NCBI GenBank assembly: GCA_964016885.1
Contig: CAXHJY010000212.1
Coordinates: 62,001-126,000 of the forward strand
Source of the DNA: Eledone cirrhosa
Lineage: Eukaryota
Reading direction: 5' to 3'
Length of the DNA: 64,000 bases
Below, piece after piece: positions 29,038 through 64,000 of this stretch (position 1 is its first letter; each line of letters starts with the position of its first letter). Both the position numbers and the translations under genes were made by a program. Under the pieces are notes generated by a model. The model ran no database searches. It had not been told where the DNA came from and was given only the letters and a program-made list of their open reading frames with translations.

Positions 29038-29089
29038 TTTGTTTCAATTTATCGTTTTCGGTATGCCTGACCGATTTAACTCACTCAAT

Positions 29090-29097
29090 ATGCAAAT
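29090..29097 (+). promoter_or_regulatory. Octamer motif ATGCAAAT (present in every unit)
   Basis: Exact match; function inferred. Confidence 0.45.
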
Positions 29098-29146
29098 TAG
29101 GCTGCTCAGCCGTTAATTTTCATAAGGAAAGTATATACTTTCGAAC

Positions 29147-29233
29147 GTTCAACTATCTGGCAGATGGGTAAACGGTGCTGATGATAGCTAACAAGCTTGA
29201 AACTAGTACATCGTTCCTGTGTCAGTGTTGAAC
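29147..29233 (+). ncRNA. Type I hammerhead ribozyme (first copy; one per unit)
   Basis: Stem I AACGGUG(29171-77)/CAUCGUU(29209-15); core CUGAUGA(29178-84); stem II U-AGCU-AACA-AGCU-U; GAAA(29199-202); stem III AC-UA-GU; cleavage triplet GUA, cut 29208^29209; stem I extends GGG/CCU, CUGGCA/UGUCAG, GUUCAAC/GUUGAAC. Confidence 0.85.
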
Positions 29234-29394
29234 AAAAAGGTGACGTGGTTGCCTTAACACCGTATAGCATAAATTCAGGCTGTTCGCTTTGTTGACAAAC
29301 AAACGAACAAAGCGGCCGGCGTTATAATAAACGTCGGCTAAACTGATGCGTGCATATATGTATGTGTACCTGTATGCATATGTGTGTATATATG

Positions 29395-29435
<41 letters not shown>

Positions 29436-29890
29436 GCATGCTACTGTACGTCTGTATACATACATGTATGTACGTATACATACATACTTACATTTAAGTA
29501 AGTGCCATACTAAGAGTGAGAAATGAAATTTCGTTTTCATTTTTTTCAATTTATCGTTTTCGGTATGCCTGACCGATTTAACTCACTCAATATGCAAATT
29601 AGGCTGCTCAGCCGTTAATTTTCATAAGGAAAGTATATACTTTCGAACGTTCAACTATCTGGCAGATGGGTAAACGGTGCTGATGATAGCTAACAAGCTT
29701 GAAACTAGTACATCGTTCCTGTGTCAGTGTTGAACAAAAAGGTGACGTGGTTGCCTTAACACCGTATGGCATAAATTCAGGCTGTTCGCTTTGTTGACAA
29801 ACAAACGAACAAAGCGGCCGGCGTTATAATAAACGTCGGCTAAACTGATGCGTGCATATATGTATGTGTACCTGTATGCATATGTGTGTA

Positions 29891-29939
<49 letters not shown>

Positions 29940-30394
29940 GCATGCTACTGTACGTCTGTATACATATATGTATGTACGTATACATACATACTTACATTTA
30001 AGTAAGTGCCATACTAAGAGTGAGAAATGAAATTTCGTTTTCATTTTTTTCAATTTATCGTTTTCGGTATGCCTGACCGATTTAACTCACTCAATATGCA
30101 AATTAGGCTGCTCAGCCGTTAATTTTCATAAGGAAAGTATATACTTTCGAACGTTCAACTATCTGGCAGATGGGTAAACGGTGCTGATGATAGCTAACAA
30201 GCTTGAAACTAGTACATCGTTCCTGTGTCAGTGTTGAACAAAAAGGTGACGTGGTTGCCTTAACACCGTATGGCATAAATTCAGGCTGTTCGCTTTGTTG
30301 ACAAACAAACGAACAAAGCGGCCGGCGTTATAATAAACGTCGGCTAAACTGATGCGTGCATATATGTATGTGTACCTGTATGCATATGTGTGTA

Positions 30395-30443
<49 letters not shown>

Positions 30444-30898
30444 GCATGCTACTGTACGTCTGTATACATATATGTATGTACGTATACATACATACTTACA
30501 TTTAAGTAAGTGCCATACTAAGAGTGAGAAATGAAATTTCGTTTTCATTTTTTTCAATTTATCGTTTTCGGTATGCCTGACCGATTTAACTCACTCAATA
30601 TGCAAATTAGGCTGCTCAGCCGTTAATTTTCATAAGGAAAGTATATACTTTCGAACGTTCAACTATCTGGCAGATGGGTAAACGGTGCTGATGATAGCTA
30701 ACAAGCTTGAAACTAGTACATCGTTCCTGTGTCAGTGTTGAACAAAAAGGTGACGTGGTTGCCTTAACACCGTATGGCATAAATTCAGGCTGTTCGCTTT
30801 GTTGACAAACAAACGAACAAAGCGGCCGGCGTTATAATAAACGTCGGCTAAACTGATGCGTGCATATATGTATGTGTACCTGTATGCATATGTGTGTA

Positions 30899-30947
<49 letters not shown>

Positions 30948-31402
30948 GCATGCTACTGTACGTCTGTATACATATATGTATGTACGTATACATACATACT
31001 TACATTTAAGTAAGTGCCATACTAAGAGTGAGAAATGAAATTTCGTTTTCATTTTTTTCAATTTATCGTTTTCGGTATGCCTGACCGATTTAACTCACTC
31101 AATATGCAAATTAGGCTGCTCAGCCGTTAATTTTCATAAGGAAAGTATATACTTTCGAACGTTCAACTATCTGGCAGATGGGTAAACGGTGCTGATGATA
31201 GCTAACAAGCTTGAAACTAGTACATCGTTCCTGTGTCAGTGTTGAACAAAAAGGTGACGTGGTTGCCTTAACACCGTATGGCATAAATTCAGGCTGTTCG
31301 CTTTGTTGACAAACAAACGAACAAAGCGGCCGGCGTTATAATAATAGTCGGCTAAACTGATGCGTGCATATATGTATGTGTACCTGTATGCATATGTGTG
31401 TA

Positions 31403-31451
<49 letters not shown>

Positions 31452-31906
31452 GCATGCTACTGTACGTCTGTATACATATATGTATGTACGTATACATACA
31501 TACTTACATTTAAGTAAGTGCCATACTAAGAGTGAGAAATGAAATTTCGTTTTCATTTTTTTCAATTTATCGTTTTCGGTATGCCTCACCGATTTAACTC
31601 ACTCAATATGCAAATTAGGCTGCTCAGCCGTTAATTTTCATAAGGAAAGTATATACTTTCGAACGTTCAACTATCTGGCAGATGGGTAAACGGTGCTGAT
31701 GATAGCTAACAAGCTTGAAACTAGTACATCGTTCCTGTGTCAGTGTTGAACAAAAAGGTGACGTGGTTGCCTTAACACCGTATGGCATAAATTCAGGCTG
31801 TTCGCTTTGTTGACAAACAAACGAACAAAGCGGCCGGCGTTATAATAAACGTCGGCTAAACTGATGCGTGCATATATGTATGTGTACCTGTATGCATATG
31901 TGTGTA

Positions 31907-31967
<61 letters not shown>

Positions 31968-32422
31968 GCATGCTACTGTACGTCTGTATACATATATGTA
32001 TGTACGTATACATACATACTTACATTTAAGTAAGTGCCATACTAAGAGTGAGAAATGAAATTTCGTTTTCATTTTTTTCAATTTATCGTTTTCGGTATGC
32101 CTGACCGATTTAACTCACTCAATATGCAAATTAGGCTGCTCAGCCGTTAATTTTCATAAGGAAAGTATATACTTTCGAACGTTCAACTATCTGGCAGATG
32201 GGTAAACGGTGCTGATGATAGCTAACAAGCTTGAAACTAGTACATCGTTCCTGTGTCAGTGTTGAACAAAAAGGTGACGTGGTTGCCTTAACACCGTATG
32301 GCATAAATTCAGGCTGTTCGCTTTGTTGACAAACAAACGAACAAAGCGGCCGGCGTTATAATAATAGTCGGCTAAACTGATGCGTGCATATATGTATGTG
32401 TACCTGTATGCATATGTGTGTA

Positions 32423-32471
<49 letters not shown>

Positions 32472-32932
32472 GCATGCTACTGTACGTCTGTATACATATA
32501 TGTATGTACGTATACATACATACTTACATTTAAGTAAGTGCCATACTAAGAGTGAGAAATGAAATTTCGTTTTCATTTTTTTCAATTTATCGTTTCCGGT
32601 ATGCCTGACCGATTTAACTCACTCAATATGCAAATTAGGCTGCTCAGCCGTTAATTTTCATAAGGAAAGTATATACTTTCGAACGTTCAACTATCTGGCA
32701 GATGGGTAAACGGTGCTGATGATAGCTAACAAGCTTGAAACTAGTACATCGTTCCTGTGTCAGTGTTGAACAAAAAGGTGACGTGGTTGCCTTAACACCG
32801 TATGGCATAAATTCAGGCTGTTCGCTTTGTTGACAAACAAACGAACAAAGCGGCCGGCGTTATAATAAACGTCGGCTAAACTGATGCGTGCATATATGTA
32901 TGTGTACCTGTATGCATATGTGTGTATATATG

Positions 32933-32973
<41 letters not shown>

Positions 32974-33428
32974 GCATGCTACTGTACGTGTGTATACATA
33001 TATGTATGTACGTATACATACATACTTACATTTAAGTAAGTGCCATACTAAGAGTGAGAAATGAAATTTCGTTTTCATTTTTTTCAATTTATCGTTTTCG
33101 GTATGCCTGACCGATTTAACTCACTCAATATGCAAATTAGGCTGCTCAGCCGTTAATTTTCATAAGGAAAGTATATACTTTCGAACGTTCAACTATCTGG
33201 CAGATGGGTAAACGGTGCTGATGATAGCTAACAAGCTTGAAACTAGTACATCGTTCCTGTGTCAGTGTTGAACAAAAAGGTGACGTGGTTGCCTTAACAC
33301 CGTATGGCATAAATTCAGACTGTTCGCTTTGTTGACAAACAAACGAACAAAGCGGCCGGCGTTATAATAAACGTCGGCTAAACTGATGCGTGCATATATG
33401 TATGTGTACCTGTATGCATATGTGTGTA

Positions 33429-33477
<49 letters not shown>

Positions 33478-33932
33478 GCATGCTACTGTACGTCTGTATA
33501 CATATATGTATGTACGTATACATACATACTTACATTTAAGTAAGTGCCATACTAAGAGTGAGAAATGAAATTTCGTTTTCATTTTTTTCAATTTATCGTT
33601 TTCGGTATGCCTGACCGATTTAACTCACTCAATATGCAAATTAGGCTGCTCAGCCGTTAATTTTCATAAGGAAAGTATATACTTTCGAACGTTCAACTAT
33701 CTGGCAGATGGGTAAACGGTGCTGATGATAGCTAACAAGCTTGAAACTAGTACATCGTTCCTGTGTCAGTGTTGAACAAAAAGGTGACGTGGTTGCCTTA
33801 ACACCGTATGGCATAAATTCAGGCTGTTCGCTTTGTTGACAAACAAACGAACAAAGCGGCCGGCGTTATAATAAACGTCGGCTAAACTGATGCGTGCATA
33901 TATGTATGTGTACCTGTATGCATATGTGTGTA

Positions 33933-33997
<65 letters not shown>

Positions 33998-34452
33998 GCA
34001 TGCTACTGTACGTCTGTATACATATATGTATGTACGTATACATACATACTTACATTTAAGTAAGTGCCATACTAAGAGTGAGAAATGAAATTTCGTTTTC
34101 ATTTTTTTCAATTTATCGTTTTCGGTATGCCTGACCGATTTAACTCACTCAATATGCAAATTAGGCTGCTCAGCCGTTAATTTTCATAAGGAAAGTATAT
34201 ACTTTCGAACGTTCAACTATCTGGCAGATGGGTAAACGGTGCTGATGATAGCTAACAAGCTTGAAACTAGTACATCGTTCCTGTGTCAGTGTTGAACAAA
34301 AAGGTGACGTGGTTGCCTTAACACCGTATGGCATAAATTCAGGCTGTTCGCTTTGTTGACAAACAAACGAACAAAGCGGCCGGCGTTATAATAAACGTCG
34401 GCTAAACTGATGCGTGCATATATGTATGTGTACCTGTATGCATATGTGTGTA

Positions 34453-34501
<49 letters not shown>

Positions 34502-34962
34502 GCATGCTACTGTACGTCTGTATACATATATGTATGTACGTATACATACATACTTACATTTAAGTAAGTGCCATACTAAGAGTGAGAAATGAAATTTCGT
34601 TTTCATTTTTTTCAATTTATCGTTTTCGGTATGCCTGACCGATTTAACTCACTCAATATGCAAATTAGGCTGCTCAGCCGTTAATTTTCATAAGGAAAGT
34701 ATATACTTTCGAACGTTCAACTATCTGGCAGATGGGTAAACGGTGCTGATGATAGCTAACAAGCTTGAAACTAGTACATCGTTCCTGTGTCAGTGTTGAA
34801 CAAAAAGGTGACGTGGTTGCCTTAACACCGTATGGCATAAATTCAGGCTGTTCGCTTTGTTGACAAACAAACGAACAAAGCGGCCGGCGTTATAATAAAC
34901 GTCGGCTAAACTGATGCGTGCATATATGTATGTGTACCTGTATGCATATGTGTGTATATATG

Positions 34963-35003
<41 letters not shown>

Positions 35004-35458
35004 GCATGCTACTGTACGTCTGTATACATATATGTATGTACGTATACATACATACTTACATTTAAGTAAGTGCCATACTAAGAGTGAGAAATGAAATTTC
35101 GTTTTCATTTTTTTCAATTTATCGTTTTCGGTATGCCTGACCGATTTAACTCACTCAATATGCAAATTAGGCTGCTCAGCCGTTAATTTTCATAAGGAAA
35201 GTATATACTTTCGAACGTTCAACTATCTGGCAGATGGGTAAACGGTGCTGATGATAGCTAACAAGCTTGAAACTAGTACATCGTTCCTGTGTCAGTGTTG
35301 AACAAAAAGGTGACGTGGTTGCCTTAACACCGTATGGCATAAATTTAGGCTGTTCGCTTTGTTGACAAACAAACGAACAAAGCGGCCGGCGTTATAATAA
35401 ACGTCGGCTAAACTGATGCGTGCATATATGTATGTGTACCTGTATGCATATGTGTGTA

Positions 35459-35503
<45 letters not shown>

Positions 35504-35958
35504 GCATGCTACTGTACGTCTGTATACATATATGTATGTACGTATACATACATACTTACATTTAAGTAAGTGCCATACTAAGAGTGAGAAATGAAATTTC
35601 GTTTTCATTTTTTTCAATTTATCGTTTTCGGTATGCCTGACCGATTTAACTCACTCAATATGCAAATTAGGCTGCTCAGCCGTTAATTTTCATAAGGAAA
35701 GTATATACTTTCGAACGTTCAACTATCTGGCAGATGGGTAAACGGTGCTGATGATAGCTAACAAGCTTGAAACTAGTACATCGTTCCTGTGTCAGTGTTG
35801 AACAAAAAGGTGACGTGGTTGCCTTAACACCGTATGGCATAAATTCAGGCTGTTCGCTTTGTTGACAAACAAACGAACAAAGCGGCCGGCGTTATAATAA
35901 ACGTCGGCTAAACTGATGCGTGCATATATGTATGTGTACCTGTATGCATATGTGTGTA

Positions 35959-36011
<53 letters not shown>

Positions 36012-36466
36012 GCATGCTACTGTACGTCTGTATACATATATGTATGTACGTATATATACATACTTACATTTAAGTAAGTGCCATACTAAGAGTGAGAAAT
36101 GAAATTTCGTTTTCATTTTTTTCAATTTATCGTTTTCGGTATGCCTGACCGATTTAACTCACTCAATATGCAAATTAGGCTGCTCAGCCGTTAATTTTCA
36201 TAAGGAAAGTATATACTTTCGAACGTTCAACTATCTGGCAGATGGGTAAACGGTGCTGATGATAGCTAACAAGCTTGAAACTAGTACATCGTTCCTGTGT
36301 CAGTGTTGAACAAAAAGGTGACGTGGTTGCCTTAACACCGTATGGCATAAATTCAGGCTGTTCGGTTTGTTGACAAACAAACGAACAAAGCGGCCGGCGT
36401 TATATTAAACGTCGGCTAAACTGATGCGTGCATATATGTATGTGTACCTGTATGCATATGTGTGTA

Positions 36467-36515
<49 letters not shown>

Positions 36516-36976
36516 GCATGCTACTGTACGTCTGTATACATATATGTATGTACGTATACATACATACTTACATTTAAGTAAGTGCCATAATAAGAGTGAG
36601 AAATGAAATTTCGTTTTCATTTTTTTCAATTTATCGTTTTCGGTATGCCTGACCGATTTAACTCACTCAATATGCAAATTAGGCTGCTCAGCCGTTAATT
36701 TTCATAAGGAAAGTATATACTTTCGAACGTTCAACTATCTGGCAGATGGGTAAACGGTGCTGATGATAGCTAACAAGCTTGAAACTAGTACATCGTTCCT
36801 GTGTCAGTGTTGAACAAAAAGGTGACGTGGTTGCCTTAACACCGTATGGCATAAATTCAGGCTGTTCGCTTTGTTGACAAACAAACGAACAAAGCGGCCG
36901 GCGTTATAATAAACGTCGGCTAAACTGATGCGTGCATATATGTATGTGTACCTGTATGCATATGTGTGTATATATG

Positions 36977-37013
<37 letters not shown>

Positions 37014-37474
37014 GCATGCTACTGTACGTCTGTATACATATATGTATGTACGTATACATACATACTTACATTTAAGTAAGTGCCATACTAAGAGTGAGAA
37101 ATGAAATTTCGTTTTCATTTTTTTCAATTTATCGTTTTCGGTATGCCTGACCGATTTAACTCACTCAATATGCAAATTAGGCTGCTCAGCCGTTAATTTT
37201 CATAAGGAAAGTATATACTTTCGAACGTTCAACTATCTGGCAGATGGGTAAACGGTGCTGATGATAGCTAACAAGCTTGAAACTAGTACATCGTTCCTGT
37301 GTCAGTGTTGAACAAAAAGGTGACGTGGTTGCCTTAACACCGTATGGCATAAATTCAGGCTGTTCGCTTTGTTGACAAACAAACGAACAAAGCGGCCGGC
37401 GTTATAATAAACGTCGGCTAAACTGATGCGTGCATATATGTATGTGTACCTGTATGCATATGTGTGTATATATG

Positions 37475-37511
<37 letters not shown>

Positions 37512-37966
37512 GCATGCTACTGTACGTCTGTATACATATATGTATGTACGTATATATACATACTTACATTTAAGTAAGTGCCATACTAAGAGTGAGAAAT
37601 GAAATTTCGTTTTCATTTTTTTCAATTTATCGTTTTCGGTATGCCTGACCGATTTAACTCACTCAATATGCAAATTAGGCTGCTCAGCCGTTAATTTTCA
37701 TAAGGAAAGTATATACTTTCGAACGTTCAACTATCTGGCAGATGGGTAAACGGTGCTGATGATAGCTAACAAGCTTGAAACTAGTACATCGTTCCTGTGT
37801 CAGTGTTGAACAAAAAGGTGACGTGGTTGCCTTAACACCGTATGGCATAAATTCAGGCTGTTCGCTTTGTTGACAAACAAACGAACAAAGCGGCCGGCGT
37901 TATAATAAACGTCGGCTAAACTGATGCGTGCATATATGTATGTGTACCTGTATGCATATGTGTGTA

Positions 37967-38015
<49 letters not shown>

Positions 38016-38476
38016 GCATGCTACTGTACGTCTGTATACATATATGTATGTACGTATACATACATACTTACATTTAAGTAAGTGCCATACTAAGAGTGAG
38101 AAATGAAATTTCGTTTTCATTTTTTTCAATTTATCGTTTTCGGTATGCCTGACCGATTTAACTCACTCAATATGCAAATTAGGCTGCTCAGCCGTTAATT
38201 TTCATAAGGAAAGTATATACTTTCGAACGTTCAACTATCTGGCAGATGGGTAAACGGTGCTGATGATAGCTAACAAGCTTGAAACTAGTACATCGTTCCT
38301 GTGTCAGTGTTGAACAAAAAGGTGACGTGGTTGCCTTAACACCGTATGGCATAAATTCAGGCTGTTCGCTTTGTTGACAAACAAACGAACAAAGCGGCCG
38401 GCGTTATAATAAACGTCGGCTAAACTGATGCGTGCATATATGTATGTGTACCTGTATGCATATGTGTGTATATATG

Positions 38477-38513
<37 letters not shown>

Positions 38514-38968
38514 GCATGCTACTGTACGTCTGTATACATATATGTATGTACGTATACATACATACTTACATTTAAGTAAGTGCCATACTAAGAGTGAGAA
38601 ATGAAATTTCGTTTTCATTTTTTTCAATTTATCGTTTTCGGTATGCCTGACCGATTTAACTCACTCAATATGCAAATTAGGCTGCTCAGCCGTTAATTTT
38701 CATAAGGAAAGTATATACTTTCGAACGTTCAACTATCTGGCAGATGGGTAAACGGTGCTGATGATAGCTAACAAGCTTGAAACTAGTACATCGTTCCTGT
38801 GTCAGTGTTGAACAAAAAGGTGACGTGGTTGCCTTAACACCGTATGGCATAAATTCAGGCTGTTCGCTTTGTTGACAAACAAACGAACAAAGCGGCCGGC
38901 GTTATAATAAACGTCGGCTAAACTGATGCGTGCATATATGTATGTGTACCTGTATGCATATGTGTGTA

Positions 38969-39019
<51 letters not shown>

Positions 39020-39480
39020 GCATGCTACTGTACGTCTGTATACATATATGTATGTACGTATACATACATACTTACATTTAAGTAAGTGCCATACTAAGAG
39101 TGAGAAATGAAATTTCGTTTTCATTTTTTTCAATTTATCGTTTTCGGTATGCCTGACCGATTTAACTCACTCAATATGCAAATTAGGCTGCTCAGCCGTT
39201 AATTTTCATAAGGAAAGTATATACTTTCGAACGTTCAACTATCTGGCAGATGGGTAAACGGTGCTGATGATAGCTAACAAGCTTGAAACTAGTACATCGT
39301 TCCTGTGTCAGTGTTGAACAAAAAGGTGACGTGGTTGCCTTAACACCGTATGGCATAAATTCAGGCTGTTCGCTTTGTTGACAAACAAACGAACAAAGCG
39401 GCCGGCGTTATAATAAACGTCGGCTAAACTGATGCGTGCATATATGTATGTGTACCTGTATGCATATGTGTGTATATATG

Positions 39481-39518
<38 letters not shown>

Positions 39519-39980
39519 TGCATGCTACTGTACGTCTGTATACATATATGTATGTACGTATACATACATACTTACATTTAAGTAAGTGCCATACTAAGAG
39601 TGAGAAATGAAATTTCGTTTTCATTTTTTTCAATTTATCGTTTTCGGTATGCCTGACCGATTTAACTCACTCAATATGCAAATTAGGCTGCTCAGCCGTT
39701 AATTTTCATAAGGAAAGTATATACTTTCGAACGTTCAACTATCTGGCAGATGGGTAAACGGTGCTGATGATAGCTAACAAGCTTGAAACTAGTACATCGT
39801 TCCTGTGTCAGTGTTGAACAAAAAGGTGACGTGGTTGCCTTAACACCGTATGGCATAAATTCAGGCTGTTCGCTTTGTTGACAAACAAACGAACAAAGCG
39901 GCCGGCGTTATAATAAACGTCGGCTAAACTGATGCGTGCATATATGTATGTGTACCTGTATGCATATGTGTGTATATATG

Positions 39981-40018
<38 letters not shown>

Positions 40019-40480
40019 TGCATGCTACTGTACGTCTGTATACATATATGTATGTACGTATACATACATACTTACATTTAAGTAAGTGCCATACTAAGAG
40101 TGAGAAATGAAATTTCGTTTTCATTTTTTTCAATTTATCGTTTTCGGTATGCCTGACCGATTTAACTCACTCAATATGCAAATTAGGCTGCTCAGCCGTT
40201 AATTTTCATAAGGAAAGTATATACTTTCGAACGTTCAACTATCTGGCAGATGGGTAAACGGTGCTGATGATAGCTAACAAGCTTGAAACTAGTACATCGT
40301 TCCTGTGTCAGTGTTGAACAAAAAGGTGACGTGGTTGCCTTAACACCGTATGGCATAAATTCAGGCTGTTCGCTTTGTTGACAAACAAACGAACAAAGCG
40401 GCCGGCGTTATAATAAACGTCGGCTAAACTGATGCGTGCATATATGTATGTGTACCTGTATGCATATGTGTGTATATATG

Positions 40481-40517
<37 letters not shown>

Positions 40518-40977
40518 GCATGCTACTGTACGTCTGTATACATATATGTATGTACGTATACATACATACTTACATTTAAGTAAGTGCCATACTAAGAGTG
40601 AGAAATGAAATTTCGTTTTCATTTTTTTCAATTTATCGTTTTCGGTATGCCTGACCGATTTAACTCACTCAATATGCAAATTAGGCTGCTCAGCCGTTAA
40701 TTTTCATAAGGAAAGTATATACTTTCGAACGTTCAACTATCTGGCAGATGGGTAAACGGTGCTGATGATAGCTAACAAGCTTGAAACTAGTACATCGTTC
40801 CTGTGTCAGTGTTGAACAAAAAGGTGACGTGGTTGCCTTAACACCGTATGGCATAAATTCAGGCTGTTCGCTTTGTTGACAAATAAACGACAAAGCGGCC
40901 GGCGTTATAATAAACGTCGGCTAAACTGATGCGTGCATATATGTATGTGTACCTGTATGCATATGTGTGTATATATG

Positions 40978-41024
<47 letters not shown>

Positions 41025-41485
41025 GCATGCTACTGTACGTCTGTATACATATATGTATGTACGTATACATACATACTTACATTTAAGTAAGTGCCATACT
41101 AAGAGTGAGAAATGAAATTTCGTTTTCATTTTTTTCAATTTATCGTTTTCGGTATGCCTGACCGATTTAACTCACTCAATATGCAAATTAGGCTGCTCAG
41201 CCGTTAATTTTCATAAGGAAAGTATATACTTTCGAACGTTCAACTATCTGGCAGATGGGTAAACGGTGCTGATGATAGCTAACAAGCTTGAAACTAGTAC
41301 ATCGTTCCTGTGTCAGTGTTGAACAAAAAGGTGACGTGGTTGCCTTAACACCGTATGGCATAAATTCAGGCTGTTCGCTTTGTTGACAAACAAACGAACA
41401 AAGCGGCCGGCGTTATAATAAACGTCGGCTAAACTGATGCGTGCATATATGTATGTGTACCTGTATGCATATGTGTGTATATATG

Positions 41486-41522
<37 letters not shown>

Positions 41523-41977
41523 GCATGCTACTGTACGTCTGTATACATATATGTATGTACGTATACATACATACTTACATTTAAGTAAGTGCCATACTAA
41601 GAGTGAGAAATGAAATTTCGTTTTCATTTTTTTCAATTTATCGTTTTCGGTATGCCTGACCGATTTAACTCACTCAATATGCAAATTAGGCTGCTCAGCC
41701 GTTAATTTTCATAAGGAAAGTATATACTTTCGAACGTTCAACTATCTGGCAGATGGGTAAACGGTGCTGATGATAGCTAACAAGCTTGAAACTAGTACAT
41801 CGTTCCTGTGTCAGTGTTGAACAAAAAGGTGACGTGGTTGCCTTAACACCGTATGGCATAAATTCAGGCTGTTCGCTTTGTTGACAAACAAACGAACAAA
41901 GCGGCCGGCGTTATAATAAACGTCGGCTAAACTGATGCGTGCATATATGTATGTGTACCTGTATGCATATGTGTGTA

Positions 41978-42028
<51 letters not shown>

Positions 42029-42483
42029 GCATGCTACTGTACGTCTGTATACATATATGTATGTACGTATACATACATACTTACATTTAAGTAAGTGCCA
42101 TACTAAGAGTGAGAAATGAAATTTCGTTTTCATTTTTTTCAATTTATCGTTTTCGGTATGCCTGACCGATTTAACTCACTCAATATGCAAATTAGGCTGC
42201 TCAGCCGTTAATTTTCATAAGGAAAGTATATACTTTCGAACGTTCAACTATCTGGCAGATGGGTAAACGGTGCTGATGATAGCTAACAAGCTTGAAACTA
42301 GTACATCGTTCCTGTGTCAGTGTTGAACAAAAAGGTGACGTGGTTGCCTTAACACCGTATGGCATAAATTCAGGCTGTTCGCTTTGTTGACAAACAAACG
42401 AACAAAGCGGCCGGCGTTATAATAAACGTCGGCTAAACTGATGCGTGCATATATGTATGTGTACCTGTATGCATATGTGTGTA

Positions 42484-42534
<51 letters not shown>

Positions 42535-50047: not shown

Positions 50048-50096
<49 letters not shown>

Positions 50097-50557: not shown

Positions 50558-50598
<41 letters not shown>

Positions 50599-51059
50599 GC
50601 ATGCTACTGTACGTCTGTATACATATATGTATGTACGTATACATACATACTTACATTTAAGTAAGTGCCATACTAAGAGTGAGAAATGAAATTTCGTTTT
50701 CATTTTTTTCAATTTATCGTTTTCGGTATGCCTGACCGATTTAACTCACTCAATATGCAAATTAGGCTGCTCAGCCGTTAATTTTCATAAGGAAAGTATA
50801 TACTTTCGAACGTTCAACTATCTGGCAGATGGGTAAACGGTGCTGATGATAGCTAACAAGCTTGAAACTAGTACATCGTTCCTGTGTCAGTGTTGAACAA
50901 AAAGGTGACGTGGTTGCCTTAACACCGTATGGCATGAATTCAGGCTGTTCGCTTTGTTGACAAACAAACGAACAAAGCGGCCGGCGTTATAATAAACGTC
51001 GGCTAAACTGATGCGTGCATATATGTATGTGTACCTGTATGCATATGTGTGTATATATG

Positions 51060-51100
<41 letters not shown>

Positions 51101-51561
51101 GCATGCTACTGTACGTCTGTATACATATATGTATGTACGTATACATACATACTTACATTTAAGTAAGTGCCATACTAAGAGTGAGAAATGAAATTTCGTT
51201 TTCATTTCTTTCAATTTATCGTTTTCGGTATGCCTGACCGATTTAACTCACTCAATATGCAAATTAGGCTGCTCAGCCGTTAATTTTCATAAGGAAAGTA
51301 TATACTTTCGAACGTTCAACTATCTGGCAGATGGGTAAACGGTGCTGATGATAGCTAACAAGCTTGAAACTAGTACATCGTTCCTGTGTCAGTGTTGAAC
51401 AAAAAGGTGACGTGGTTGCCTTAACACCGTATGGCATAAATTCAGGCTGTTCGCTTTGTTGACAAACAAACGAACAAAGCGGCCGGCGTTATAATAAACG
51501 TCGGCTAAACTGATGCGTGCATATATGTATGTGTACCTGTATGCATATGTGTGTATATATG

Positions 51562-51600
<39 letters not shown>

Positions 51601-52061
51601 GCATGCTACTGTACGTCTGTATACATATATGTATGTACGTATACATACATACTTACATTTAAGTAAGTGCCATACTAAGAGTGAGAAATGAAATTTCGTT
51701 TTCATTTTTTTCAATTTATCGTTTTCGGTATGCCTGACCGATTTAACTCACTCAATATGCAAATTAGGCTGCTCAGCCGTTAATTTTCATAAGGAAAGTA
51801 TATACTTTCGAACGTTCAACTATCTGGCAGATGGGTAAACGGTGCTGATGATAGCTAACAAGCTTGAAACTAGTACATCGTTCCTGTGTCAGTGTTGAAC
51901 AAAAAGGTGACGTGGTTGCCTTAACACCGTATGGCATAAATTCAGGCTGTTCGCGTTGTTGACAAACAAACGAACAAAGCGGCCGGCGTTATAATAAACG
52001 TCGGCTAAACTGATGCGTGCATATATGTATGTGTACCTGTATGCATATGTGTGTATATATG

Positions 52062-52122
<61 letters not shown>

Positions 52123-52577
52123 GCATGCTACTATACGTCTGTATACATATATGTATGTACGTATACATACATACTTACATTTAAGTAAGTGCCATACTAA
52201 GAGTGAGAAATGAAATTTCGTTTTCATTTTTTTCAATTTTTCGTTTTCGGTATGCCTGACCGATTTAACTCACTCAATATGCAAATTAGGCTGCTCAGCC
52301 GTTAATTTTCATAAGGAAAGTATATACTTTCGAACGTTCAACTATCTGGCAGATGGGTAAACGGTGCTGATGATAGCTAACAAGCTTGAAACTAGTACAT
52401 CGTTCCTGTGTCAGTGTTGAACAAAAAGGTGACGTGGTTGCCTTAACACCGTATGGCATAAATTCAGGCTGTTCGCTTTGTTGACAAACAAACGAACAAA
52501 GCGGCCGGCGTTATAATAAACGTCGGCTAAACTGATGCGTGCATATATGTATGTGTACCTGTATGCATATGTGTGTA

Positions 52578-52626
<49 letters not shown>

Positions 52627-53081
52627 GCATGCTACTGTACGTCTGTATACATATATGTATGTACGTATACATACATACTTACATTTAAGTAAGTGCCATA
52701 CTAAGAGTGAGAAATGAAATTTCGTTTTCATTTTTTTCAATTTATCGTTTTCGGTATGGCTGACCGATTTAACTCACTCAATATGCAAATTAGGCTGCTC
52801 AGCCGTTAATTTTCATAAGGAAAGTATATACTTTCGAACGTTCAACTATCTGGCAGATGGGTAAACGGTGCTGATGATAGCTAACAAGCTTGAAACTAGT
52901 ACATCGTTCCTGTGTCAGTGTTGAACAAAAAGGTGACGTGGTTGCCTTAACACCGTATGGCATAAATTCAGGCTGTTCGCTTTGTTGACAAACAAACGAA
53001 CAAAGCGGTCGGCGTTATAATAAACGTCGGCTAAACTGATGCGTGCATATATGTATGTGTACCTGTATGCATATGTGTGTA

Positions 53082-53136
<55 letters not shown>

Positions 53137-53591
53137 GCATGCTACTGTACGTCTGTATACATATATGTATGTACGTATATATACATACTTACATTTAAGT
53201 AAGTGCCATACTAAGAGTGAGAAATGAAATTTCGTTTTCATTTTTTTCAATTTATCGTTTTCGGTATGCCTGACCGATTTAACTCACTCAATATGCAAAT
53301 TAGGCTGCTCAGCCGTTAATTTTCATAAGGAAAGTATATACTTTCTAACGTTCAACTATCTGGCAGATGGGTAAACGGTGCTGATGATAGCTAACAAGCT
53401 TGAAACTAGTACATCGTTCCTGTGTCAGTGTTGAACAAAAAGGTGACGTGGTTGCCTTAACACCGTATGGCATAAATTCAGGCTGTTCGCTTTGTTGACA
53501 AACAAACGAACAAAGCGGCCGGCGTTATAATAAACGTCGGCTAAACTGATGCGTGCATATATGTATGTGTACCTGTATGCATATGTGTGTA

Positions 53592-53673
<82 letters not shown>

Positions 53674-54129
53674 TGCATGCTACTGTACGTCTGTATACAT
53701 ATATGTATGTACGTATACATACATACTTACATTTAAGTAAGTGCCATACTAAGAGTGAGAAATGAAATTTCGTTTTCATTTTTTTCAATTTATCGTTTTC
53801 GGTATGCCTGACCGATTTAACTCACTCAATATGCAAATTAGGCTGCTCAGCCGTTAATTTTCATAAGGAAAGTATATACTTTCGAACGTTCAACTATCTG
53901 GCAGATGGGTAAACGGTGCTGATGATAGCTAACAAGCTTGAAACTAGTACATCGTTCCTGTGTCAGTGTTGAACAAAAAGGTGACGTGGTTGCCTTAACA
54001 CCGTATGGCATAAATTCAGGCTGTTCGCTTTGTTGACAAACAAACGAACAAAGCGGCCGGCGTTATAATAAACGTCGGCTAAACTGATGCGTGCATATAT
54101 GTATGTGTACCTGTATGCATATGTGTGTA

Positions 54130-54176
<47 letters not shown>

Positions 54177-54637
54177 GCATGCTACTGTACGTCTGTATAC
54201 ATATATGTATGTACGTATACATACATACTTACATTTAAGTAAGTGCCATACTAAGAGTGAGAAATGAAATTTCGTTTTCATTTTTTTCAATTTATCGTTT
54301 TCGGTATGCCTGACCGATTTAACTCACTCAATATGCAAATTAGGCTGCTCAGCCGTTAATTTTCATAAGGAAAGTATATACTTTCGAACGTTCAACTATC
54401 TGGCAGATGGGTAAACGGTGCTGATGATAGCTAACAAGCTTGAAACTAGTACATCGTTCCTGTGTCAGTGTTGAACAAAAAGGTGACGTGGTTGCCTTAA
54501 CACCGTATGGCATAAATTCAGGCTGTTCGCTTTGTTGACAAACAAACGAACAAAGCGGCCGGCGTTATAATAAACGTCGGCTAAACTGATGCGTGCATAT
54601 ATCTATGTGTACCTGTATGCATATGTGTGTATATATG

Positions 54638-54679
<42 letters not shown>

Positions 54680-55145
54680 TATATGCATGCTACTGTACGT
54701 CTGTATACATATATGTATGTACGTATACATACATACTTACATTTAAGTAAGTGCCATACTAAGAGTGAGAAATGAAATTTCGTTTTCATTTTTTTCAATT
54801 TATCGTTTTCGGTATGCCTGACCGATTTAACTCACTCAATATGCAAATTAGGCTGCTCAGCCGTTAATTTTCATAAGGAAAGTATATACTTTCGAACGTT
54901 CAACTATCTGGCAGATGGGTAAACGGTGCTGATGATAGCTAACAAGCTTGAAACTAGTACATCGTTCCTGTGTCAGTGTTGAACAAAAAGGTGACGTGGT
55001 TGCCTTAACACCGTATGGCATAAATTCAGGCTGTTCGCTTTGTTGACAAACAAACGAACAAAGCGGCCGGCGTTATAATAAACGTCGGCTAAACTGATGC
55101 GTGCATATATGTATGTGTACCTGTATGCATATGTGTGTATATATG

Positions 55146-55203
<58 letters not shown>

Positions 55204-55665
55204 TGCATGCTACTGTACGTCTGTATACATATATGTATGTACGTATACATACATACTTACATTTAAGTAAGTGCCATACTAAGAGTGAGAAATGAAATTT
55301 CGTTTTCATTTTTTTCAATTTATCGTTTTCGGTATGCCTGACCGATTTAACTCACTCAATATGCAAATTAGGCTGCTCAGCCGTTAATTTTCATAAGGAA
55401 AGTATATACTTTCGAACGTTCAACTATCTGGCAGATGGGTAAACGGTGCTGATGATAGCTAACAAGCTTGAAACTAGTACATCGTTCCTGTGTCAGTGTT
55501 GAACAAAAAGGTGACGTGGTTGCCTTAACACCGTATGGCATAAATTCAGGCTGTTCGCTTTGTTGACAAACAAACGAACAAAGCGGCCGGCGTTATAATA
55601 AACGTCGGCTAAACTGATGCGTGCATATATGTATGTGTACCTGTATGCATATGTGTGTATATATG

Positions 55666-55702
<37 letters not shown>

Positions 55703-56157
55703 GCATGCTACTGTACGTCTGTATACATATATGTATGTACGTATATATACATACTTACATTTAAGTAAGTGCCATACTAAGAGTGAGAAATGAAATTTCG
55801 TTTTCATTTTTTTCAATTTATCGTTTTCGGTATGCCTGACCGATTTAACTCACTCAATATGCAAATTAGGCTGCTCAGCCGTTAATTTTCATAAGGAAAG
55901 TATATACTTTCGAACGTTCAACTATCTGGCAGATGGGTAAACGGTGCTGATGATAGCTAACAAGCTTGAAACTAGTACATCGTTCCTGTGTCAGTGTTGA
56001 ACAAAAAGGTGACGTGGTTGCCTTAACACCGTATGGCATAAATTCAGGCTGTTCGCTTTGTTGACAAACAAACGAACAAAGCGGCCGGCGTTATAATAAA
56101 CGTCGGCTAAACTGATGCGTGCATATATGTATGTGTACCTGTATGCATATGTGTGTA

Positions 56158-56208
<51 letters not shown>

Positions 56209-56669
56209 GCATGCTACTGTACGTCTGTATACATATATGTATGTACGTATACATACATACTTACATTTAAGTAAGTGCCATACTAAGAGTGAGAAATGAA
56301 ATTTCGTTTTCATTTTTTTCAATTTATCGTTTTCGGTATGCCTGACCGATTTAACTCACTCAATATGCAAATTAGGCTGCTCAGCCGTTAATTTTCATAA
56401 GGAAAGTATATACTTTCGAACGTTCAACTATCTGGCAGATGGGTAAACGGTGCTGATGATAGCTAACAAGCTTGAAACTAGTACATCGTTCCTGTGTCAG
56501 TGTTGAACAAAAAGGTGACGTGGTTGCCTTAACACCGTATGGCATAAATTCAGGCTGTTCGCTTTGTTGACAAACAAACGAACAAAGCGGCCGGCGTTAT
56601 AATAAACGTCGGCTAAACTGATGCGTGCATATATGTATGTGTACCTGTATGCATATGTGTGTATATATG

Positions 56670-56710
<41 letters not shown>

Positions 56711-57171
56711 GCATGCTACTGTACGTCTGTATACATATATGTATGTACGTATACATACATACTTACATTTAAGTAAGTGCCATACTAAGAGTGAGAAATG
56801 AAATTTCGTTTTCATTTTTTTCAATTTATCGTTTTCGGTATGCCTGACCGATTTAACTCACTCAATATGCAAATTAGGCTGCTCAGCCGTTAATTTTCAT
56901 AAGGAAAGTATATACTTTCGAACGTTCAACTATCTGGCAGATGGGTAAACGGTGCTGATGATAGCTAACAAGCTTGAAACTAGTACATCGTTCCTGTGTC
57001 AGTGTTGAACAAAAAGGTGACGTGGTTGCCTTAACACCGTATGGCATAAATTCAGGCTGTTCGCTTTGTTGACAAACAAACGAACAAAGCGGCCGGCGTT
57101 ATAATAAACGTCGGCTAAACTGATGCGTGCATATATGTATGTGTACCTGTATGCATATGTGTGTATATATG

Positions 57172-57211
<40 letters not shown>

Positions 57212-57667
57212 TGCATGCTACTGTACGTCTGTATACATATATGTATGTACGTATACATACATACTTACATTTAAGTAAGTGCCATACTAAGAGTGAGAAA
57301 TGAAATTTCGTTTTCATTTTTTTCAATTTATCGTTTTCGGTATGCCTGACCGATTTAACTCACTCAATATGCAAATTAGGCTGCTCAGCCGTTAATTTTC
57401 ATAAGGAAAGTATATACTTTCGAACGTTCAACTATCTGGCAGATGGGTAAACGGTGCTGATGATAGCTAACAAGCTTGAAACTAGTACATCGTTCCTGTG
57501 TCAGTGTTGAACAAAAAGGTGACGTGGTTGCCTTAACACCGTATGGCATAAATTCAGGCTGTTCGCTTTGTTGACAAACAAACGAACAAAGCGGCCGGCG
57601 TTATAATAAACGTCGGCTAAACTGATGCGTGCATATATGTATGTGTACCTGTATGCATATGTGTGTA

Positions 57668-57718
<51 letters not shown>

Positions 57719-58173
57719 GCATGCTACTGTACGTCTGTATACATATATGTATGTACGTATACATACATACTTACATTTAAGTAAGTGCCATACTAAGAGT
57801 GAGAAATGAAATTTCGTTTTCATTTTTTTCAATTTATCGTTTTCGGTATGCCTGACCGATTTAACTCACTCAATATGCAAATTAGGCTGCTCAGCCGTTA
57901 ATTTTCATAAGGAAAGTATATACTTTCGAACGTTCAACTATCTGGCAGATGGGTAAACGGTGCTGATGATAGCTAACAAGCTTGAAACTAGTACATCGTT
58001 CCTGTGTCAGTGTTGAACAAAAAGGTGACGTGGTTGCCTTAACACCGTATGGCATAAATTCAGGCTGTTCGCTTTGTTGACAAACAAACGAACAAAGCGG
58101 CCGGCGTTATAATAAACGTCGGCTAAACTGATGCGTGCATATATGTATGTGTACCTGTATGCATATGTGTGTA

Positions 58174-58226
<53 letters not shown>

Positions 58227-58687
58227 GCATGCTACTGTACGTCTGTATACATATATGTATGTACGTATACATACATACTTACATTTAAGTAAGTGCCATA
58301 CTAAGAGTGAGAAATGAAATTTCGTTTTCATTTTTTTCAATTTATCGTTTTCGGTATGCCTGACAGATTTAACTCACTCAATATGCAAATTAGGCTGCTC
58401 AGCCGTTAATTTTCATAAGGAAAGTATATACTTTCGAACGTTCAACTATCTGGCAGATGGGTAAACGGTGCTGATGATAGCTAACAAGCTTGAAACTAGT
58501 ACATCGTTCCTGTGTCAGTGTTGAATAAAAAGGTGACGTGGTTGCCTTAACACCGTATGGCATAAATTCAGGCTGTTCGCTTTGTTGACAAACAAACGAA
58601 CAAAGCGGCCGGCGTTATAATAAACGTCGGCTAAACTGATGCGTGCATATATGTATGTGTACCTGTATGCATATGTGTGTATATATG

Positions 58688-58724
<37 letters not shown>

Positions 58725-59185
58725 GCATGCTACTGTACGTCTGTATACATATATGTATGTACGTATACATACATACTTACATTTAAGTAAGTGCCATACT
58801 AAGAGTGAGAAATGAAATTTCGTTTTCATTTTTTTCAATTTATCGTTTTCGGTATGCCTGACCGATTTAACTCACTCAATATGCAAATTAGGCTGCTCAG
58901 CCGTTAATTTTCATAAGGAAAGTATATACTTTCGAACGTTCAACTATCTGGCAGATGGGTAAACGGTGCTGATGATAGCTAACAAGCTTGAAACTAGTAC
59001 ATCGTTCCTGTGTCAGTGTTGAACAAAAAGGTGACGTGGTTGCCTTAACACCGTATGGCATAAATTCAGGCTGTTCGCTTTGTTGACAAACAAACGAACA
59101 AAGCGGCCGGCGTTATAATAAACGTCGGCTAAACTGATGCGTGCATATATGTATGTGTACCTGTATGCATATGTGTGTATATATG

Positions 59186-59222
<37 letters not shown>

Positions 59223-59677
59223 GCATGCTACTGTACGTCTGTATACATATATGTATGTACGTATACATACATACTTACATTTAAGTAAGTGCCATACTAA
59301 GAGTGAGAAATGAAATTTCGTTTTCATTTTTTTCAATTTATCGTTTTCGGTATGCCTGACCGATTTAACTCACTCAATATGCAAATTAGGCTGCTCAGCT
59401 GTTAATTTTCATAAGGAAAGTATATACTTTCGAACGTTCAACTATCTGGCAGATGGGTAAACGGTGCTGATGATAGCTAACAAGCTTGAAACTAGTACAT
59501 CGTTCCTGTGTCAGTGTTGAACAAAAAGGTGACGTGGTTGCCTTAACACCGTATGGCATAAATTCAGGCTGTTCGCTTTGTTGACAAACAAACGAACAAA
59601 GCGGCCGGCGTTATAATAAACGTCGGCTAAACTGATGCGTGCATATATGTATGTGTACCTGTATGCATATGTGTGTA

Positions 59678-59728
<51 letters not shown>

Positions 59729-60189
59729 GCATGCTACTGTACGTCTGTATACATATATGTATGTACGTATACATACATACTTACATTTAAGTAAGTGCCA
59801 TACTAAGAGTGAGAAATGAAATTTCGTTTTCATTTTTTTCAATTTATCGTTTTCGGTATGCCTGACCGATTTAACTCACTCAATATGCAAATTAGGCTGC
59901 TCAGCCGTTAATTTTCATAAGGAAAGTATATACTTTCGAACGTTCAACTATCTGGCAGATGGGTAAACGGTGCTGATGATAGCTAACAAGCTTGAAACTA
60001 GTACATCGTTCCTGTGTCAGTGTTGAACAAAAAGGTGACGTGGTTGCCTTAACACCGTATGGCATAAATTCAGGCTGTTCGCTTTGTTGACAAACAAACG
60101 AACAAAGCGGCCGGCGTTATAATAAACGTCGGCTAAACTGATGCGTGCATATATGTATGTGTACCTGTATGCATATGTGTGTATATATG

Positions 60190-60226
<37 letters not shown>

Positions 60227-60681
60227 GCATGCTACTGTACGTCTGTATACATATATGTATGTACGTATACATACATACTTACATTTAAGTAAGTGCCATA
60301 CTAAGAGTGAGAAATGAAATTTCGTTTTCATTTTTTTCAATTTATCGTTTTCGGTATGCCTGACCGATTTAACTCACTCAATATGCAAATTAGGCTGCTC
60401 AGCCGTTAATTTTCATAAGGAAAGTATATACTTTCGAACGTTCAACTATCTGGCAGATGGGTAAACGGTGCTGATGATAGCTAACAAGCTTGAAACTAGT
60501 ACATCGTTCCTGTGTCAGTGTTGAACAAAAAGGTGACGTGGTTGCCTTAACACCGTATGGCATAAATTCAGGCTGTTCGCTTTGTTGACAAACAAACGAA
60601 CAAAGCGGCCGGCGTTATAATAAACGTCGGCTAAACTGATGCGTGCATATATGTATGTGTACCTGTATGCATATGTGTGTA

Positions 60682-60734
<53 letters not shown>

Positions 60735-61189
60735 GCATGCTACTGTACGTCTGTATACATATATGTATGTACGTATACATACATACTTACATTTAAGTAA
60801 GTGCCATACTAAGAGTGAGAAATGAAATTTCGTTTTCATTTTTTTCAATTTATCGTTTTCGGTATGCCTGACCGATTTAACTCACTCAATATGCAAATTA
60901 GGCTGCTCAGCCGTTAATTTTCATAAGGAAAGTATATACTTTCGAACGTTCAACTATCTGGCAGTTGGGTAAACGGTGCTGATGATAGCTAACAAGCTTG
61001 AAACTAGTACATCGTTCCTGTGTCAGTGTTGAACAAAAAGGTGACGTGGTTGCCTTAACACCGTATGGCATAAATTCAGGCTGTTCGCTTTGTTGACAAA
61101 TAAACGAACAAAGCGGCCGGCGTTATAATAAACGTCGGCTAAACTGATGCGTGCATATATGTATGTGTACCTGTATGCATATGTGTGTA

Positions 61190-61244
<55 letters not shown>

Positions 61245-61705
61245 GCATGCTACTGTACGTCTGTATACATATATGTATGTACGTATACATACATACTTAC
61301 ATTTAAGTAAGTGCCATACTAAGAGTGAGAAATGAAATTTCGTTTTCATTTTTTTCAATTTATCGTTTTCGGTATGCCTGACCGATTTAACTCACTCAAT
61401 ATGCAAATTAGGCTGCTCAGCCGTTAATTTTCATAAGGAAAGTATATACTTTCGAACGTTCAACTATCTGGCAGATGGGTAAACGGTGCTGATGATAGCT
61501 AACAAGCTTGAAACTAGTACATCGTTCCTGTGTCAGTGTTGAACAAAAAGGTGACGTGGTTGCCTTAACACCGTATGGCATAAATTCAGGCTGTTCGCTT
61601 TGTTGACAAACAAACGAACAAAGCGGCCGGCGTTATAATAAACGTCGGCTAAACTGATGCGTGCATATATGTATGTGTACCTGTATGCATATGTGTGTAT
61701 ATATG

Positions 61706-61747
<42 letters not shown>

Positions 61748-62213
61748 TATATGCATGCTACTGTACGTCTGTATACATATATGTATGTACGTATACATAC
61801 ATACTTACATTTAAGTAAGTGCCATACTAAGAGTGAGAAATGAAATTTCGTTTTCATTTTTTTCAATTTATCGTTTTCGGTATGCCTGACCGATTTAACT
61901 CACTCAATATGCAAATTAGGCTGCTCAGCCGTTAATTTTCATAAGGAAAGTATATACTTTCGAACGTTCAACTATCTGGCAGATGGGTAAACGGTGCTGA
62001 TGATAGCTAACAAGCTTGAAACTAGTACATCGTTCCTGTGTCAGTGTTGAACAAAAAGGTGACGTGGTTGCCTTAACACCGTATGGCATAAATTCAGGCT
62101 GTTCGCTTTGTTGACAAACAAACGAACAAAGCGGCCGGCGTTATAATAAACGTCGGCTAAACTGATGCGTGCATATATGTATGTGTACCTGTATGCATAT
62201 GTGTGTATATATG

Positions 62214-62250
<37 letters not shown>

Positions 62251-62711
62251 GCATGCTACTGTACGTCTGTATACATATATGTATGTACGTATACATACAT
62301 ACTTACATTTAAGTAAGTGCCATACTAAGAGTGAGAAATGAAATTTCGTTTTCATTTTTTTCAATTTATCGTTTTCGGTATGCCTGACCGATTTAACTCA
62401 CTCAATATGCAAATTAGGCTGCTCAGCCGTTAATTTTCATAAGGAAAGTATATACTTTCGAACGTTCAACTATCTGGCAGATGGGTAAACGGTGCTGATG
62501 ATAGCTAACAAGCTTGAAACTAGTACATCGTTCCTGTGTCAGTGTTGAACAAAAAGGTGACGTGGTTGCCTTAACACCGTATGGCATAAATTCAGGCTGT
62601 TCGCTTTGTTGACAAACAAACGAACAAAGCGGCCGGCGTTATAATAAACGTCGGCTAAACTGATGCGTGCATATATCTATGTGTACCTGTATGCATATGT
62701 GTGTATATATG

Positions 62712-62753
<42 letters not shown>

Positions 62754-63219
62754 TATATGCATGCTACTGTACGTCTGTATACATATATGTATGTACGTAT
62801 ACATACATACTTACATTTAAGTAAGTGCCATACTAAGAGTGAGAAATGAAATTTCGTTTTCATTTTTTTCAATTTATCGTTTTCGGTATGCCTGACCGAT
62901 TTAACTCACTCAATATGCAAATTAGGCTGCTCAGCCGTTAATTTTCATAAGGAAAGTATATACTTTCGAACGTTCAACTATCTGGCAGATGGGTAAACGG
63001 TGCTGATGATAGCTAACAAGCTTGAAACTAGTACATCGTTCCTGTGTCAGTGTTGAACAAAAAGGTGACGTGGTTGCCTTAACACCGTATGGCATAAATT
63101 CAGGCTGTTCGCTTTGTTGACAAACAAACGAACAAAGCGGCCGGCGTTATAATAAACGTCGGCTAAACTGATGCGTGCATATATGTATGTGTACCTGTAT
63201 GCATATGTGTGTATATATG

Positions 63220-63277
<58 letters not shown>

Positions 63278-63491
63278 TGCATGCTACTGTACGTCTGTAT
63301 ACATATATGTATGTACGTATACATACATACTTACATTTAAGTAAGTGCCATACTAAGAGTGAGAAATGAAATTTCGTTTTCATTTTTTTCAATTTATCGT
63401 TTTCGGTATGCCTGACCGATTTAACTCACTCAATATGCAAATTAGGCTGCTCAGCCGTTAATTTTCATAAGGAAAGTATATACTTTCGAAC

Positions 63492-63578
63492 GTTCAACTA
63501 TCTGGCAGATGGGTAAACGGTGCTGATGATAGCTAACAAGCTTGAAACTAGTACATCGTTCCTGTGTCAGTGTTGAAC
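63492..63578 (+). ncRNA. Type I hammerhead ribozyme (last complete copy in window)
   Basis: Same sequence as 29147-29233. Confidence 0.85.
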
Positions 63579-63739
63579 AAAAAGGTGACGTGGTTGCCTT
63601 AACACCGTATGGCATAAATTCAGGCTGTTCGCTTTGTTGACAAACAAACGAACAAAGCGGCCGGCGTTATAATAAACGTCGGCTAAACTGATGCGTGCAT
63701 ATATGTATGTGTACCTGTATGCATATGTGTGTATATATG

Positions 63740-63776
<37 letters not shown>

Positions 63777-64000
63777 GCATGCTACTGTACGTCTGTATAC
63801 ATATATGTATGTACGTATATATACATACTTACATTTAAGTAAGTGCCATACTAAGAGTGAGAAATGAAATTTCGTTTTCATTTTTTTCAATTTATCGTTT
63901 TCGGTATGCCTGACCGATTTAACTCACTCAATATGCAAATTAGGCTGCTCAGCCGTTAATTTTCATAAGGAAAGTATATACTTTCGAACGTTCAACTATC

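Follow-up and report, generated by a model that had tools for sequence, protein, structure and literature searches.

Metazoan non-LTR (long terminal repeat) retrozymes are tandem, non-coding units that each carry one type I hammerhead ribozyme. As described in PMC7229834, those of Mytilus (350-390 bp) and the axolotl (Rtz_353, with HHR_Amex2) have a low GC content, thousands of dispersed copies and a highly self-paired monomer, and both cleavage and circles were shown for the systems reported there. Penelope-like elements (PLEs), among them Poseidon of Anolis (PMC11167929) and members of the Hydra clade (10.1101/2021.04.23.441226), leave insertions with two 3' ends that differ by a tail, 5' truncation and an inverted 5' arm; they have a hammerhead upstream of these ends and insert into AT-rich or (TA)n targets. 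The window analyzed here, a 64-kb stretch of DNA (G000:C239:62001-126000; positions without a contig name are those of the window), contains a long array of hammerhead-bearing units that share the sequence features of these retrozymes and whose family bears PLE-type insertion footprints. Its monomer is longer than those of PMC7229834 and contains an internal microsatellite. In contrast to Poseidon and the Hydra-clade PLEs, the unit has no open reading frame (ORF), the tail is 55-58 nt rather than the published 30-40, and the monomer repeats in full. We conclude that the family is probably a non-autonomous non-LTR retrozyme whose copying and insertion depend on the reverse transcriptase (RT) and GIY-YIG endonuclease of a PLE.

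Tandem Repeats Finder (TRF) reports a single tandem array from 29036 to 64000 with a period of ~498, 69.2 copies and 97% matches. A search for the 43-nt core string gives 69 matches on the + strand of the 64-kb window and none on the - strand; 68 of them are exact, and the core at 48307 carries A6>G at 48316. The sequence-only reading of this DNA had described at least 35 kb of ~500-bp tandem units with 69 hammerhead cores, one of them mutated, and both statements are borne out. The array continues beyond the window to G000:C239:141055, for a total of 99 cores over ~50 kb. Core-to-core spacing ranges from 498 to 538, mostly because of a (TA)n tract, and the left edge is an inverted 64-nt unit fragment at 28973-29036. 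No ORF lies between successive head-to-tail units, and the RT plus GIY-YIG frame of an autonomous PLE is thus absent from them. No tRNA gene was found in the window, and no promoter was identified there.

The insertion anatomy, which the sequence-only reading missed, was examined at 51 other loci, comprising the 11 top BLAST matches and the first 40 listed on contig C1, with 53 insertions in all. Some inverted arms, all of them short, escape the calling filter (L055, L057, L068, L074). Two arms stand head to head in 32 of the 53 insertions and tail to tail in none. The 3' ends are confined to two sites ~58 nt apart: 77 of 83 readable ends fall at unit positions ~268-296 (short) or 338-350 (long). 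Among 25 two-armed insertions in which both ends are standard, 22 combine a short with a long end, 2 are short+short and 1 is long+long (p ~8e-5). The 5' ends of the dispersed insertions are freely variable, as in 5' truncation, and an arm can hold up to 16 full monomers. Most 3' ends run into (TA)n; of the short ends called, 22 of 38 pass a strict TA score, and of the long ends 29 of 45, in a set that includes some false calls. Two fixed 3' ends, variable 5' truncation, an inverted 5'-truncated arm and an AT-rich or microsatellite target are the features of a PLE-mobilized element. PLE insertions are characteristically marked by a tail at one of the ends, by an inverted copy with a truncated 5' part and by a bias toward microsatellites (10.1101/2021.04.23.441226). 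In the in vitro assay of PMC11167929, a PLE protein cut both strands and extended them, with starts at two internal positions of the RNA that are one tail length apart. By analogy, the two 3' ends and the head-to-head short and long arms are the PLE tail signature of two putative internal reverse-transcription starts. Inserts cross the ribozyme cut site and none ends there, so the template would be either a circle or an uncleaved multimer.

The ribozyme itself has a conserved core, stems I-III and an open end in stem I, as in type I hammerheads. In unit 1, the core begins with C3 at 29178, and the cut is predicted between 29208 and 29209. The long interrupted stem I (29147-29236) folds at -29.1 kcal/mol with a z of -3.49, which none of 200 shuffles equals, and a hammerhead descriptor matches the real unit and none of 20,000 units obtained by Markov resampling. 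Together with covariation in stem I, these results confirm the type I topology with a long interrupted stem I that had been read from the letters. The ends proposed for the product, an RNA that would start with a 5'-OH and finish in ACUAGUA>p, agree with the sequence as well. In the predicted monomer circle, stem III is unformed and loop 3 is paired to the bases that open the core; a duplex of two stem III copies is predicted at -6.8 kcal/mol. From this model we infer that cleavage may depend on a dimer. Axolotl HHR_Amex2 likewise combines a U.U where helix II begins with a helix III of 2 bp, and its dimer cleaves much better (PMC7229834); dimer action of hammerheads with a short stem III has been described before (PMC4209133). 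The circular monomer fold is predicted to be 70% paired and is kept in a 430-nt sister subfamily.

The family is dispersed throughout the genome. The 41-nt core has 10,032 exact matches, the 430-bp sister subfamily 9,756, and a pattern anchored in the flanks, outside the core, 23,161; each reversed control gives 0. The sister subfamily was found from variant letters in one deeply covering run of unknown kind; of three other such runs, two yielded 1 and 6 contigs and the third none, with no informative ends or joints. Monomer length across the family is ~430-540 nt. Tandem non-coding hammerhead units, the great number of copies scattered as monomers, dimers and multimers, and a monomer RNA predicted to be highly self-paired place the family among the tandem non-LTR retrozymes, an assignment that the sequence-only reading had made and that holds against both the sequence and PMC7229834. 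The other half of its label, a retrozyme-like satellite, needs correction: with more than 23,000 copies and PLE-type insertion anatomy, this is a dispersed family and not mainly a satellite.

Forty-six distinct variants show subfamily-level changes at N7, in loop 2 and in stem I, and none at the catalytic core bases. At one stem I pair, 31 variants have G.U, 10 have U.G, 1 has A-U and 4 are mismatched. Across 18 distinct monomers and 117 predicted pairs, 94.7% of cells are paired, and 9 pairs have changes on both sides. The covariation score is reached by 0 of 500 shuffles, and slid controls pair at 34-41%. Such compensatory base changes point to selection that would act on the RNA. Units differ at 1.4 sites per 328 nt within a locus and at 8.0 between loci, and 6 of the 18 multi-unit loci have variants that are carried by all their units and by no other sampled locus. 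This within-locus uniformity fits rolling on one monomer, and also fits transcripts of uniform source arrays. At L032:3366-10000, ~544- and ~500-bp units alternate on both arms of one inverted insertion, which suggests a dimeric template.

The array in the window has a further history. Its 98 units comprise 49 unit types, and repeated 4-unit blocks number 7 versus the 0.004 expected from shuffled unit order; its length is therefore due in part to DNA-level block duplication or to an assembly artifact. Its right end is joined through a 3-nt microhomology to ~550 nt of a young PLE 3' end (L036:5056-5600, from G000:C239:141056 onward), a Hydra-type element with its own hammerhead and a tail of ~95 nt. 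The array was also considered as a single-event chimera, but both of its ends are of the short type, which makes this less likely.

The genome contains young PLEs that have intact frames and show this two-end pattern, one short and one long (136 and 91 scored matches, 97-100% identity). Their open frames encode 777 aa (Neptune/Nematis-type) and 821 aa (Hydra-type), and the Hydra-clade PLEs of this genome have a tail of ~85-95 nt. The 777- and 821-aa elements carry other hammerheads, or none found by the descriptor, and share only microsatellite similarity with the retrozyme unit. In the loci examined, no PLE ORF precedes this hammerhead as a pseudo-LTR (pLTR), and none lies upstream of other U.U-type hammerheads. 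Besides the right end of the array, PLE coding sequence is joined without a TA spacer at 3 of the 51 other loci (L033/34, L050, L053). All four spacer-free fusions are same-strand, and the partner families have the Hydra-clade CxCx5C motif, with DKT in addition in the 821-aa family. At L050 and L053, the rule of one short and one long end is kept across both elements. These four fusions are a lead to the mobilizer. A more specific scheme, which we regard as doubtful, is that the enzyme of a Hydra-clade PLE, beginning at two internal sites, one per DNA strand, rolls around a retrozyme RNA that has cleaved itself and become circular, and that it sometimes switches template between this circle and its own mRNA. 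The four fusions would then be fossils of such switches that name the mobilizer of an animal retrozyme, and monomer circles would be protected from cleavage, through the predicted pairing between the core and the palindromic loop 3, until they meet a second copy.

Our data allow us to outline a mechanism for mobilization by a PLE. Tandem loci would be transcribed into multimers, in which neighboring hammerheads would pair their palindromic stem III and cut the multimer to monomers; these may be ligated into circles. A PLE protein, probably as a dimer, would nick both strands of a TA tract and, on each strand, prime cDNA at one of two internal positions of the RNA. Copying would run backward across the ribozyme junction, in some cases through many units, and the resulting arms, both truncated at the 5' end, would be joined head to head. 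The window array would have begun as such a PLE-type insertion, to be enlarged later by DNA-level block duplication.

Several observations weigh against parts of this mechanism. Among 50 loci of the two young PLE families and the other loci examined, no autonomous PLE has this hammerhead or tail sequence, and homology within this survey thus points to no partner. Hydra-clade PLEs occur in great abundance and have (TA)n as their target, too, so that nested insertion with deletion accounts for the fusion joints as well, and four of four fusions on one strand is only a 1 in 16 chance. Both outer ends of the 99-core array are of the short type. The loci were selected either as top BLAST scorers or, on contig C1, as the first in the list with an intact core. 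The covariation comes from few subfamilies and hence few independent events, and its structure was taken from one aligned member. The ribozyme also looks weak in these models. The base of stem II is a U.U mismatch in 45 of the 46 variants in place of the canonical purine-pyrimidine pair, and stem III is only 2 bp, with a probability of 0.0 in the monomer fold. The Rfam search that had been proposed as a check returned no match at the gathering score for the window; the best hammerhead match, HH9, scores 18.5 bits against a cutoff of 52, although the core does align. In addition, 8 of 9 predicted Xenopus retrozyme dimers remained uncleaved (available part of bioRxiv 10.64898/2026.07.22.740005).

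One rival has PLE mobilization in common with our explanation and differs in the template. The family could be a non-autonomous PLE derivative, a tandem pLTR, copied from an uncleaved linear multimeric transcript, with a hammerhead that is weak or protein-dependent and with no circle needed. In the anole PLE, ribozyme mutants insert normally, the main substrate is uncleaved RNA, and no reads end at the cut site (PMC11167929). The weakness of stems II and III agrees with this reading, the crossing of the cut site by inserts fits multimers as well as circles, and the two unit types on both L032 arms could come from a mixed-array transcript. However, the core is invariant across subfamilies, the whole monomer keeps its closed fold, and the variants private to a third of the multi-unit loci and common to all their units are as expected from one monomer copied repeatedly. 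Circles are, moreover, abundant for mussel, coral and axolotl retrozymes in the available text of PMC7229834. A linear template is, in our judgment, a distinct possibility but not a probable one.

Explanations without a PLE fare worse. That the family is an ordinary satellite with a relic hammerhead, spread by DNA-level processes such as unequal crossover and circle reinsertion, is very unlikely: fixed 3' and variable 5' ends, strict head-to-head arms and the pairing of short with long ends are unexpected from DNA recombination, and the compensatory changes indicate selection at the RNA level. The multi-unit block duplications of the 99-unit array do favor it, as does the local tandem amplification from PLE ends preferred in the available part of the preprint (bioRxiv 10.64898/2026.07.22.740005). 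DNA-level processes are thus largely refuted for the dispersed copies and are the likely cause of the length of the one array. Mobilization by a long interspersed nuclear element (LINE) of RTE or CR1 type, in the manner of a short interspersed nuclear element (SINE), is scarcely credible. LINE-like ORFs are plentiful in the window and at the loci, and LINE sequence adjoins some 5' junctions. Yet there are two internal 3' ends rather than one 3' tail, and each insertion has one short and one long end. Fully spacer-free retroelement fusions at PLE-checked junctions are all to PLEs, LINE junctions not having been counted systematically. Mobilization by a PLE therefore remains the reading that we prefer.

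Table 1. Positions of the array, of one reference unit and of the predicted priming sites within the window
Feature	Coordinates	Strand	Basis or remark
Head-to-tail array of retrozyme units, ~504 bp each	29037..64000	+	69 cores in the window; 99 cores up to G000:C239:141055
Inverted short arm of the insertion, unit positions ~221-285, short 3' end adjoining TA	28973..29036	-	
Hammerhead (type I) in unit 1: 3-nt bulge in the long stem I, 4-bp stem II on U.U, palindromic 2-bp stem III	29147..29233	+	
First full monomer, 502 nt between successive cut sites; would give the unit RNA or circle	29209..29710	+	
TA/TG-rich microsatellite domain, predicted long hairpin, source of unit length variation	29349..29493	+	
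Short 3' end site of dispersed copies, at the loop of a small hairpin that does not vary; unit positions 285-290, with 30215 as origin of the count	30499..30504	+	putative reverse-transcription start 1
Tail, ~55-58 nt; 3' edge, unit positions 343-348, is the long end	30505..30562	+	putative reverse-transcription start 2
Core 39, A6>G at 48316, predicted inactive	48307..48349	+	core string match

Other features accompany the array and its relatives. By eye, the left flank at 28868-28912 resembles the long end of the PLE family found at the right end, followed by TA, so the array appears to sit inside a nest of PLE ends. Long open frames that resemble reverse transcriptases lie on the - strand at 3903-5700 and 9247-11100; they are probably CR1/L2 and RTE LINEs. 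The remaining Rfam E-value matches, mostly microRNA models on the TA tract, were set aside as composition artifacts. A second tandem hammerhead family at L040:5303-6750 has a period of 310 bp and adjoins a main-family copy; its arms are inverted, its stem II starts from a U.U, and its stem III is palindromic. About ten further type I hammerhead families occur in the flanks of L021, L024, L027, L031, L042, L046, L050, L053, L066, L067 and L070, and several of them are PLE ends. In the 3' region of the 777-aa PLE (L088:2900-3560), a hammerhead-like motif can be seen by eye in which C3 and G8 are seemingly replaced by U and A.

The genome contains molluscan hemocyanin genes (39 matches, versus 0 in 14 control genomes), in line with the cephalopod origin that had been thought probable. 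Three hemocyanin clusters with seven domains each lie on C1 (G000:C1:173745629-173909524), and an inverted pair lies at C26:21933048-22016816. Seven domains are the octopod pattern, which suggests an octopod as the probable host.

Tandem repeats with one hammerhead per unit have been noted repeatedly. The Schistosoma Sm-alpha and Dolichopoda pDo500 repeats have this organization, and the likeness drawn here is one of description. The same likeness, on the same terms, extends to newt satellite 2 (available text of PMC7229834). Vertebrate non-LTR retrozymes, derived from PLE pLTRs in the preprint (bioRxiv 10.64898/2026.07.22.740005), also co-occur with PLEs; the evidence there is phylogenetic and no mollusc is named in the accessible text, whereas here it is the insertion anatomy and no pLTR homologue was found. 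Retrozymes in that text range over 51-972 bp and up to 300 repeats, ranges that include the present monomer size and repeat number, so the long monomer and array singled out as distinctive by the sequence-only reading are not exceptional. The main text of PMC7229834 makes no mention of PLE-type tails, of arms that stand head to head or of (TA)n targeting. In the cephalopod hammerhead and retrozyme literature, with subscription papers, repeat libraries and supplements outside the search, no published description of this family was found, nor, within the same limits, one of PLE-type ends in retrozymes.

The kind of retrozyme is thus already known, the mollusc family is new as a member, and its value is the clear footprint of PLE integration. 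Simply as one more mollusc retrozyme family, it is an ordinary addition to the catalogue. The enzyme that mobilizes animal retrozymes, and whether the circle is the template, are left open in the available portions of PMC7229834 and of the 2026 preprint. In this family, the geometry of integration is recorded in thousands of young copies, and two exact priming sites are predicted, at unit positions ~290 and ~348. Intact candidate ORFs of 777 and 821 aa are present in the same genome, and a published in vitro assay exists (PMC11167929).

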